Of a DNA stretch of 33,486 bases, positions 7,201 through 7,422 are shown piece after piece (the stretch's first letter is position 1; every line of letters begins with the position of its first letter). The notes below the pieces were generated by a model, which did no database searches, had not been told where the DNA came from, and saw nothing but the letters and a program-made list of their open reading frames with translations. The stretch is from Candidatus Micrarchaeota archaeon (GTDB taxonomy: Archaea; Micrarchaeota; Micrarchaeia; Norongarragalinales; SBBD01). The stretch spans positions 1 through 33,486 of the forward strand of contig JAZDFO010000066.1 in assembly GCA_043807785.1 (NCBI GenBank), in the 5' to 3' direction. Both the position numbers and the translations under genes were made by a program.

Positions 7201-7422
7201 GTCAAGCGGCTCAATATAGATTCGGTCTGCGGAATCGAAGTCAGTCTGGATGGTCGCCGGGTTGCTGTTGACGAGAACGACCTCTATCCCCTCCTCTTTC
7301 AAGGCGCGGCAGCATTGCGTCCCGGAATAATCGAATTACCGCCTAACGAGCTATGCTCGCTTGGTTTCGGCCGCCTGGCCGATTACAATGGGACCGCTGC
7401 CTATGACTAGTACTTTGCGCAT
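4243..7422 (-). CDS. carB: Carbamoyl-phosphate synthase large subunit, interrupted. Exon 1 is 7422..7366 (MRKVLVIGSGPIVIGQAAE), a 30-nt intervening sequence is 7365..7336, and exon 2 is 7335..4243.
   Basis: ORF 4243..7302 shows the duplicated ATP-grasp architecture of CarB ([15 protein letters not shown] and IVINNNPETVSTDFD repeats) and, with the N-terminal segment added, is about 1049 aa. Hand translation upstream of the annotated Met continues as [18 protein letters not shown]. The missing N-terminus is found 30 nt further upstream in the same frame. Confidence 0.9.
7336..7365 (-). other. 30-nt in-frame intervening sequence in carB (ACCAAGCGAGCATAGCTCGTTAGGCGGTAA); candidate BHB-type mini-intron
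   Basis: It contains TAG and TAA in frame and sits exactly between GQAAE and FDYSG. It folds by hand into a 3-nt bulge, a 4-bp helix and a 3-nt bulge plus an intron hairpin (details in findings). Confidence 0.6.
7393..7419 (-). repeat. Proximal copy of the duplicated carB start segment (CGCAAAGTACTAGTCATAGGCAGCGGT, encoding RKVLVIGSG)
   Basis: 23 of 27 nt are identical to 8492..8518. All four differences are synonymous third-position changes, and this copy uses the A/T-ending codons. Confidence 0.85.

Follow-up and report, generated by a model that had tools for sequence, protein, structure and literature searches.

Work by Watanabe in 2002 reportedly described an intron in the cbf5 pre-mRNA of Crenarchaeota, and Fujishima is said to have shown in 2011 that the epsilon2 form of the splicing endonuclease EndA from ARMAN-2 cuts tRNA introns with bulge-helix-bulge (BHB) and bulge-helix-loop (BHL) motifs. 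Here we describe a 30-nucleotide (nt) insert in carB, the essential gene for the large chain of carbamoyl phosphate synthase (CPSase), in a Candidatus Micrarchaeota archaeon (contig JAZDFO010000066.1; the whole stretch analysed, 33,486 nt, is called the window). Judged from its sequence, the insert is very probably a BHB-type intron that EndA would splice from the carB pre-mRNA. The introns of cbf5, which encodes a pseudouridine synthase, measure 16-44 nt, often have a relaxed motif and are too short to encode an endonuclease (PMC2738675, Yokobori 2009). In 2020 cbf5 was described as the sole case of a BHB intron in a coding region, and a further BHB intron is known from the 5' untranslated region of Haloferax volcanii HVO_1309 (PMC7714728); with that one addition, the literature agrees with the statement in a preliminary description of this DNA that BHB introns in mRNA are essentially those of cbf5 in Crenarchaeota. 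No mRNA intron in carB, Micrarchaeota or DPANN is reported in the searchable literature.

The carB insert resembles the cbf5 introns in being short, in lying in a protein-coding gene, in its often relaxed motif, in its association with an EndA lineage of broad specificity and in its patchy presence; it differs from them in the gene, in the superphylum (DPANN), in the enzyme (epsilon2 rather than (alpha-beta)2 EndA) and in having an associated endonuclease, which cbf5 lacks. It shares with the ARMAN-2 tRNA introns the EndA family and a 4-bp helix with 3-nt bulges, and the corresponding helix of a tRNA-Thr intron in the window is mismatched as well; unlike those introns, it lies in an mRNA, where no tRNA body aids recognition, and a 7-nt loop shifts its outer helix away from the central one. 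Like the HVO_1309 intron it would be an EndA substrate within an mRNA, but the Haloferax intron lies in an untranslated leader and its removal repairs no reading frame. If spliced as proposed, carB would be the second protein-coding gene family, after cbf5, to have an archaeal intron, in a different superphylum and with an epsilon2 enzyme, and such a second family would mean that EndA-dependent mRNA splicing is no one-off.

The insert and its host gene are laid out as follows.

7365-7336, minus strand: candidate mini-intron of 30 nt, ACCAAGCGAGCATAGCTCGTTAGGCGGTAA in DNA and ACCAAGCGAGCAUAGCUCGUUAGGCGGUAA in RNA, read directly and with homologues at the same site elsewhere
7366-7446, minus strand: carB exon 1, starting at ATG 7446 (MSIPKIPNMRKVLVIGSGPIVIGQAAE) or ATG 7422
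4243-7335, minus strand: carB exon 2, from FDYSGTQCC... through the stop codon, by direct reading and profile matches

The minus strand reads exactly as had been claimed: the 30 nt carry TAG and TAA in frame and split the CarB motif GQAAE-FDYSG. From ATG 7422 exon 1 reads MRKVLVIGSGPIVIGQAAE, with its last base at 7366; the in-frame ATG 7446 (MSIPKIPNMRKV...) is an equally possible start and adds MSIPKIPN, which is similar to the usual CarB N-termini. Deletion of the 30 nt does recreate GQAAEFDYSG, the predicted junction being GCGGCCGAA joined to TTCGATTAT with GAA-UUC restored. The resulting CarB, of 1049 amino acids (aa), scores 1280 bits against the NCBIfam carB equivalog NF003671 (cut-off 599) in an alignment that starts from residue 2, and its N-terminus fits the pre-ATP-grasp domain from profile position 3. 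The nearest CarB relatives are annotated as Candidatus Micrarchaeota, the closest being 72% identical.

The preliminary description had proposed comparing carB alleles in related genomes, and versions with and without the insert were found. Three truncated-looking proteins among the closest CarB homologues (P0007, P0012 and P0035), in which unrelated residues run straight into FDYSG, gave the first cases: their contigs hold inserts of 30, 31 and 34 nt at the identical codon boundary. By tracking a neighbouring endonuclease gene and further truncated CarB homologues we enlarged the set to 16 distinct inserts, the window's included, the other 15 contigs (from NCBI, JGI, ENA and Logan) having theirs at the same carB site, with one shifted by 1 nt (L095). 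Some of these contigs have a Micrarchaeota-type CarB and others a CarB that is only 40-50% identical to the window's, whose nearest named relatives are Diapherotrites, Woesearchaeota or plain 'archaeon'. The inserts are 20, 20, 21, 22, 23, 25, 29, 30, 30, 30, 31, 33, 33, 34, 34 and 34 nt long. Their lengths are spread 6/6/4 over the three remainders on division by three and every one contains an in-frame stop, so the insert must be removed if CarB is to be made. The flanking exons are open and conserved, and the downstream open reading frame (ORF), of about 1020-1045 aa, is intact.

The closest relative, L084 (CarB 72% identical), is without the insert, and its carA and carB overlap by 4 nt; around the insertion site its carB reads GGCCAGGCCGCCGAATTCGACTAC. 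A scan of genome contigs with the spliced peptide GQAAEFDY returned only intron-less loci, of 44-50% identity, which were reused as negative controls. The intron-less comparison set comprises 81 loci, L084 and 80 others, mostly from distant bacteria and archaea.

An assembly or sequencing artefact of the window contig has next to no chance of accounting for the insert, given that 15 other contigs have homologous inserts at this very position, some of these inserts being identical across independent assemblies (the pairs L086/L088 and L093/L096). There is a very slim chance that carB is a decaying pseudogene or a kept fragment, in which the insert is neutral, a mobile-element footprint for example, and no full-length CarB is made. 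The two in-frame stops, the mobile endonuclease gene and gene remnant directly upstream, and the frequent loss of biosynthetic genes by DPANN archaea all speak for such decay, but the same site is split in 16 alleles from CarB lineages that are only 40-60% identical, the start, exon 1 and an exon 2 of about 1030 aa are open and conserved in each allele, carA is intact, and a covarying RNA structure has been retained, as it would not be in neutral junk. The recurrence of same-site inserts in independent contigs with intact exons makes artefact, readthrough and simple pseudogene decay very unlikely.

Four other kinds of element were considered and set aside. An intein is ruled out by the stop codons and by the size of 7-11 codons, and plain readthrough by the frame and the stops. 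The inserts, at 20-34 nt, compare with a ribozyme core of more than 200 nt in self-splicing group I or group II introns, and Rfam finds only tRNA in the window. A DNA transposon footprint would have terminal repeats; there are none, and the junctions show just an AA ambiguity.

The inserts have an RNA structure in common. In the window its parts are these.

7368-7371, minus strand: central helix H, 5' strand, exon GCCG, paired with 7338-7341 and covarying with the intron 3' strand across alleles
7338-7341, minus strand: central helix H, 3' strand, intron CGGU, paired with 7368-7371
7367-7365, minus strand: 5' bulge A,A,A, with the predicted 5' cut after its second base (7366/7365)
7337-7335, minus strand: 3' bulge A,A,U, with the predicted 3' cut after its second base (7336/7335)
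7342-7364, minus strand: inner helix h' and loop, made of CC/GG, an A/A mismatch, a 7-bp stem AGCGAGC/GCUCGUU and the loop AUA
7379-7386, minus strand: candidate outer exon-exon helix, exon-1 strand GUAAUCGG, partner 7327-7334, from constrained folds and a duplex z-score test
7327-7334, minus strand: candidate outer exon-exon helix, exon-2 strand UCGAUUAU, partner 7379-7386, from the same folds and test

One layout holds for all 16 inserts: positions -6 to -3 of exon 1 and of the intron make up the two strands of H, each strand then has three unpaired bases, two upstream and one downstream of the splice junction, and the remaining intron is a stem-loop, h', whose first base adjoins the 5' bulge. 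On its intron side H changes with the codons used in the exon, as GCCG/CGG[UAC], GCUG/CAGU, GGCG/CG[CU][CU] and CUGA/UCAG. Unaided, RNAalifold recovered exactly H, the three unpaired columns and h' from a plain MAFFT alignment of 15 sequences, in which standard pairs fill 95.8% of cells as against 28-49% when the partners are shifted along by 1-3 columns. Covariation scores 0.76 compared with 0.23 in shuffles, and none of 500 shuffles scores as high, in a comparison that ignores the kinship of related alleles; six of the eight pairs have changes on both sides. In h' alone 98.3% of cells pair, with double changes in all four pairs. When partners are permuted, H keeps 39.8 pairs on average against the 52 of 56 observed, a value attained by 1 in 10,000 permutations, and the first four pairs of h' keep 31.7 against 54 of 56, which none of 10,000 attains. 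The 5' bulge is unpaired in 14 of 14 minimum free energy (MFE) folds with short flanks.

The cleavage rule gives the same answer. The preliminary description held that EndA cuts after the second nucleotide of each 3-nt bulge, and this predicts a frame-restoring excision in all 16 alleles, recreating GQAAE-FDYSG or G[QE]AGE-FD[YF]SG. The strongest single item of support is L095, in which the helix, CUGA/UCAG, lies one base downstream of the usual register and the bulges are AU/A and AG/U, the slash marking the cut: cleavage by the rule would join GAAU to UCGAC as GAA-UUC-GAC, the unique phase-1 junction and the sole one to restore E-F-D-Y.

Retention of the 30 nt in the mRNA would offer another way to a CarB protein, either by ribosome bypass of the T4 gene 60 type or by re-initiation that makes a CarB lacking its first 19-27 residues, the insert serving only to break a DNA target. 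We give this a slim chance. A stem-loop does follow the take-off position, gene callers place the start inside the insert in some alleles (MLVWRK-FDYSG in P0007 and P0012), and protection at the level of DNA needs no splicing. Bypass is contradicted by the codons, the take-off GAA or GAG never matching the triplet before UUC (UAA, AAA, CAA, UAC, UUA, CUA or CCA); re-initiation is contradicted in the window by a UAA that directly precedes FDYSG and by the first in-frame start, TTG 7302, whose use would remove a conserved 11-residue stretch. Both leave unexplained the covariation in the EndA register and the obedience of L095 to the cut rule.

The fold that the preliminary description had drawn by hand for the window, with GCCG/CGGU, two 3-nt bulges, CC/GG, A/A and the 7-bp stem, proves to be the MFE structure with 10-nt flanks, where H has a pairing probability of 0.95. 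Shuffling the 30 nt 200,000 times keeps the 4-bp helix in 1.4% of cases, and together with 2 bp of the inner stem in 0.15%; none attains 9 of the 10 nested pairs, and the window fold is more than chance. No outer exon-exon helix had been found by hand. One is present, GUAAUCGG with UCGAUUAU, in constrained folds of 40-nt contexts, where in the window it extends further out beyond 7386-7379/7334-7327. It touches the 3' bulge, but on the 5' strand about 7 unpaired nt part it from H. The motif is thus non-canonical, and the earlier assignment to a relaxed form stands. Relative to expectation from composition, the exon 1-exon 2 duplex is more stable in intron-bearing alleles (mean z -2.05) and not in the 80 distant intron-less controls (+0.18; Mann-Whitney p = 1.5e-8, kinship ignored). 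A loose HBh' descriptor (3 of 4 H pairs and at least 3 bp in h') gave 5-75 hits per 100-nt context and was replaced by the covariation analysis. It did not pick up the inserts of the window and of L095, owing to a mismatch or bulge in h'.

Several observations weigh against the intron reading. The 16 alleles are related, and the shuffle statistics and the Mann-Whitney test take no account of phylogeny. H is fully paired in 12 of the 16 alleles and has one G/A mismatch, at its first pair, in the other four, and the outer helix does not adjoin H on both strands as it does in the strict form of the motif. In the window, flanks of 20-40 nt put the BHB-constrained fold 3.4-6.1 kcal/mol above the MFE and bring the pairing probability of H to about 0: a GC-rich hairpin in exon 1, CGGCC-AGGC-GGCCG (7368-7381, minus strand), competes with H and sequesters its GCCG strand. 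The same hairpin is the MFE structure with 20-nt flanks in L081, L104 and L083, and it could act as a kinetic competitor or regulator of splicing; in the other alleles the BHB fold costs 0-1.6 kcal/mol in a 40-nt context. No gene for the ligase RtcB was seen in the window. The case for splicing draws on the sequence, on covariation and on the way EndA is known to cut.

A relaxed motif needs an EndA of broad specificity, and the window encodes a candidate together with a presumed tRNA substrate.

22912-24078, plus strand: EndA, epsilon2-type (three-unit), 388 aa, the presumed cutting enzyme, from profile and structure-sequence matches
31334-31441, plus strand: tRNA-Thr(UGU) with a 36-nt intron (31370-31405) at position 37/38, Rfam 51.7 bits

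The three-unit EndA of the preliminary description is a full-length epsilon2 homologue that aligns over residues 10-388 with the crystallised ARMAN-2 endonuclease (4fz2/9w2k; E = 7.9e-126). Its ARMAN-specific-loop (ASL) residues Y160 and K161 and its catalytic residues Y236, H251 and K282 are conserved; in ARMAN-2 EndA the ASL and catalytic residues confer cleavage of strict BHB and relaxed BHL substrates (PMC12397907). These matches support an ability of the window enzyme to cut relaxed motifs. As the ARMAN-2 enzyme can already be expressed and crystallised, a cleavage test is practical.

Rfam also bears out the tRNA-Thr intron at 31370-31405, presumably a substrate of the same EndA; ARAGORN reports no tRNA in the window. 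Its central helix, CUUG/AAGG, forms three of four pairs with one mismatch, so this tRNA intron is itself slightly relaxed, and it is this mismatch that made a strict hBHBh' scan pass over it. An IS630-like DDE_3 transposase with helix-turn-helix (HTH) domains (31793-32809, minus strand) lies about 350 nt from the tRNA gene.

The relaxed BHB intron first proposed for the carB mRNA has thus gained same-site homologues, covarying H and h', a cut rule that holds in 16 of 16 alleles and an intact EndA. We suggest that exon-1 GCCG and the intron 3' end CGGU would form the 4-bp central helix with a 3-nt bulge on each strand, that the intron stem-loop would close the 5' bulge and that the displaced exon-exon helix would draw the exons together. 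The epsilon2 EndA, a type tolerant of relaxed motifs, would then cut at 7366/7365 and 7336/7335, and an RNA ligase, presumably RtcB, would join the exons to give GAA-UUC and full-length CarB. Were this so, some DPANN genes annotated as truncated or as pseudogenes may be intact; these carB genes are called N-terminally truncated in databases. Truncated N-termini of this kind (MKEEGI..., MVNPNIATIQ...) are annotated in about 8% of the proteins most similar to the Diapherotrites/Woesearchaeota-type CarB, examples being P0151, P0155, P0166, P0203, P0221 and P0231, of which P0151 belongs to L107 and carries the intron with no endonuclease gene beside it. Further intron alleles are probably hidden as 'short' carB annotations.

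How such an intron could be gained is suggested by two systems in which introns and endonucleases act together. Archaeal rRNA genes contain BHB introns that encode monomeric, double-motif LAGLIDADG enzymes (I-DmoI, I-Tsp061I). In cyanophage S-PM2, according to the part of PMC6083498 that deals with Zeng, Bonocora and Shub 2009, the free-standing endonuclease F-CphI cuts intron-less psbA and a neighbouring group I intron protects its own allele, an arrangement called 'collaborative homing'. At carB the gene directly upstream is likewise an endonuclease ORF and not carA, a context absent from the preliminary description.

7433-8536, minus strand: LAGLIDADG homing-endonuclease ORF, 367 aa, with a conserved core from ATG 8371 and an N-terminal XRE-like HTH
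8492-8536, minus strand: putative carB remnant, MNPAGVRKVLVIGSG, from the 5' end of a resident-type gene and joined in frame to the endonuclease ORF
8533-9063, minus strand: ORF-X (MKREIEDIGRL...), 176 aa, between carA and the carB remnant, with ATGA overlaps on both sides
9060-10166, minus strand: carA (CPSase small chain), intact

The upstream ORF matches Pfam LAGLIDADG_3 with 26 bits (cut-off 22.5) and has two LAGLIDADG motifs, LVGHCFGDGNIS and FLQALFDDDGSV; GDG and DDDGS are invariant in 17 members of its family. Its AlphaFold2 model has a pLDDT (predicted local distance difference test) of 86, with residues 1-52 disordered, and its best Foldseek matches, at E = 1e-9 to 1e-5, are endonucleases of inteins as well as I-Tsp061I and I-DmoI, which archaeal introns encode. 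On this model the product has the marks of a LAGLIDADG endonuclease: two motifs, conserved acidic residues and a predicted alpha-beta-beta-alpha-beta-beta-alpha fold. A sequence search of the PDB with the endonuclease profile gave weak HTH matches at most, and when looked up by exact sequence the endonuclease and carA ORFs of the window matched no record.

The family counts 19 proteins in a database of 5.8 billion, and members that are at least 32% identical lie immediately upstream of carB wherever the context is known. The mini-intron is present in all 14 DNA-bearing loci with the endonuclease next to carB, across CarB types that are only 40-50% identical. Viewed from the intron, the gene stands beside 14 of 16 intron alleles and none of the 81 intron-less loci. 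Recurrence at one site, nearly always beside an endonuclease gene, suggests mobility, and we give close to an even chance to the analogy by which intron and LAGLIDADG gene are the two halves of a mobile pair.

Like the archaeal rRNA introns, the carB locus would combine a BHB intron with a monomeric double-motif LAGLIDADG enzyme, whose predicted fold fits 2dch and I-DmoI; unlike them, it has the endonuclease gene outside the intron, upstream of exon 1, an intron of 20-34 nt and a protein-coding host gene. Like psbA of S-PM2, it has a free-standing endonuclease gene beside a gene with an endonuclease-less intron at a highly conserved site, and alleles without both exist. S-PM2 differs in being a phage with a self-splicing group I intron and an Endo VII-type nuclease, and its cleavage and protection are experimental findings whereas in carB they are inferred. 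Two features that go with collaborative homing are seen here: the endonuclease gene adjoins the intron-bearing gene at 14 of 14 loci, and L084 and the 80 other intron-less loci lack the pair.

The probable target of the endonuclease is intron-less carB, in or close to the strongly conserved sequence that encodes GQAAE-FDYSG. By splitting that target the intron would shield its own allele, and break repair would copy endonuclease gene, exon 1 and intron together. The remnant upstream of the window's carB could be the trace of such an event: it agrees at 37 of 42 nt with the start of carB in the intron-less L084, including a MNPAGV leader that is missing from the functional exon 1, whereas that exon (MSIPKIPNMRKV...) is more like those of other lineages, such as L082 (KIPKIADLKKV). 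The resident carB 5' end would have given way to a cassette made up of the endonuclease gene, a donor exon 1 and the mini-intron, so that the old carB start would now serve the endonuclease and the remnant would be the scar of invasion. ORF-X, which belongs to no Pfam or NCBIfam family and is absent from the other carA-endonuclease-carB loci, may be cargo of the inserted cassette.

Several relatives hint at an earlier state in which the endonuclease was encoded in, or fused at, the intron site. P0123 is fused at its N-terminus to carB exon-1 codons up to '...GSGPVVIGQA' ('...GSGPVVIGQADD'), as are P0137 and P0138 to exon-1 codons, and in P0128 ('...GQAAETCF') and P0132 exon 1 is read through into the intron at the C-terminus. 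In P0123, known as a protein only (ENA ERZ27296333, a 1506-nt contig), carB exon 1 runs to '...KVLVIGSGPVVIGQA' and is followed by the endonuclease; it may represent the ancestral state, with the endonuclease inside the intron and in frame with exon 1. P0123 and P0138, seen at the protein level, are outside the 14 DNA-bearing loci. It is possible, with somewhat less than an even chance, that DPANN archaea harbour a two-part element made of an endonuclease gene that escaped from a BHB intron into the carA-carB junction and a leftover shielding mini-intron of 20-34 nt, which would spread between lineages, even phyla, by break repair. Such an element would be the first collaborative homing outside phages and the first evidence that BHB introns of protein genes are gained by homing, giving a handle on the origin of archaeal mRNA introns; linkage to the endonuclease offers a testable route for their gain and retention.

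Another account keeps the splicing and separates the endonuclease from it, making the LAGLIDADG gene a free-standing selfish gene that homes to the carA-carB junction and the intron an older resident. We consider this unlikely, though it deserves to be taken seriously. Two intron alleles, L082 and L107, have no endonuclease gene, which also weighs against the homing proposal, as does the wholly inferred target of the enzyme; distant relatives occur in other contexts (L094, L097-L102); and the 14 of 16 linkage is overstated because most loci were found through the endonuclease. That bias leaves the linkage in the other direction, from endonuclease to intron, unaffected: the intron accompanies 14 of 14 endonuclease genes beside carB types only 40-50% identical, several endonuclease ORFs, P0123 among them, are joined to carB exon-1 codons that reach the insertion site or come close to it, and in structure the enzyme is related to endonucleases that archaeal BHB introns encode.

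Among the distant relatives of the endonuclease, one in L101 (1175-3075; 28% identical, 198 aa long) lies directly upstream of an ORF resembling Asp/Asn-tRNA synthetase, and those in L094, L097, L098 and L102 have unrelated contexts.

Elsewhere in the window, two same-strand ORFs of 358 and 365 aa (27006-29180, minus strand) abut at 28082/28083; no family is assigned to the upstream ORF, while the downstream ORF has just a weak membrane-domain match, and they may be a split gene or just adjacent genes. Directly downstream of carB, also on the minus strand, lie genes for a HEPN domain protein (3021-3557) and a nucleotidyltransferase (3558-4178), which resemble a HEPN/MNT toxin-antitoxin-type pair.

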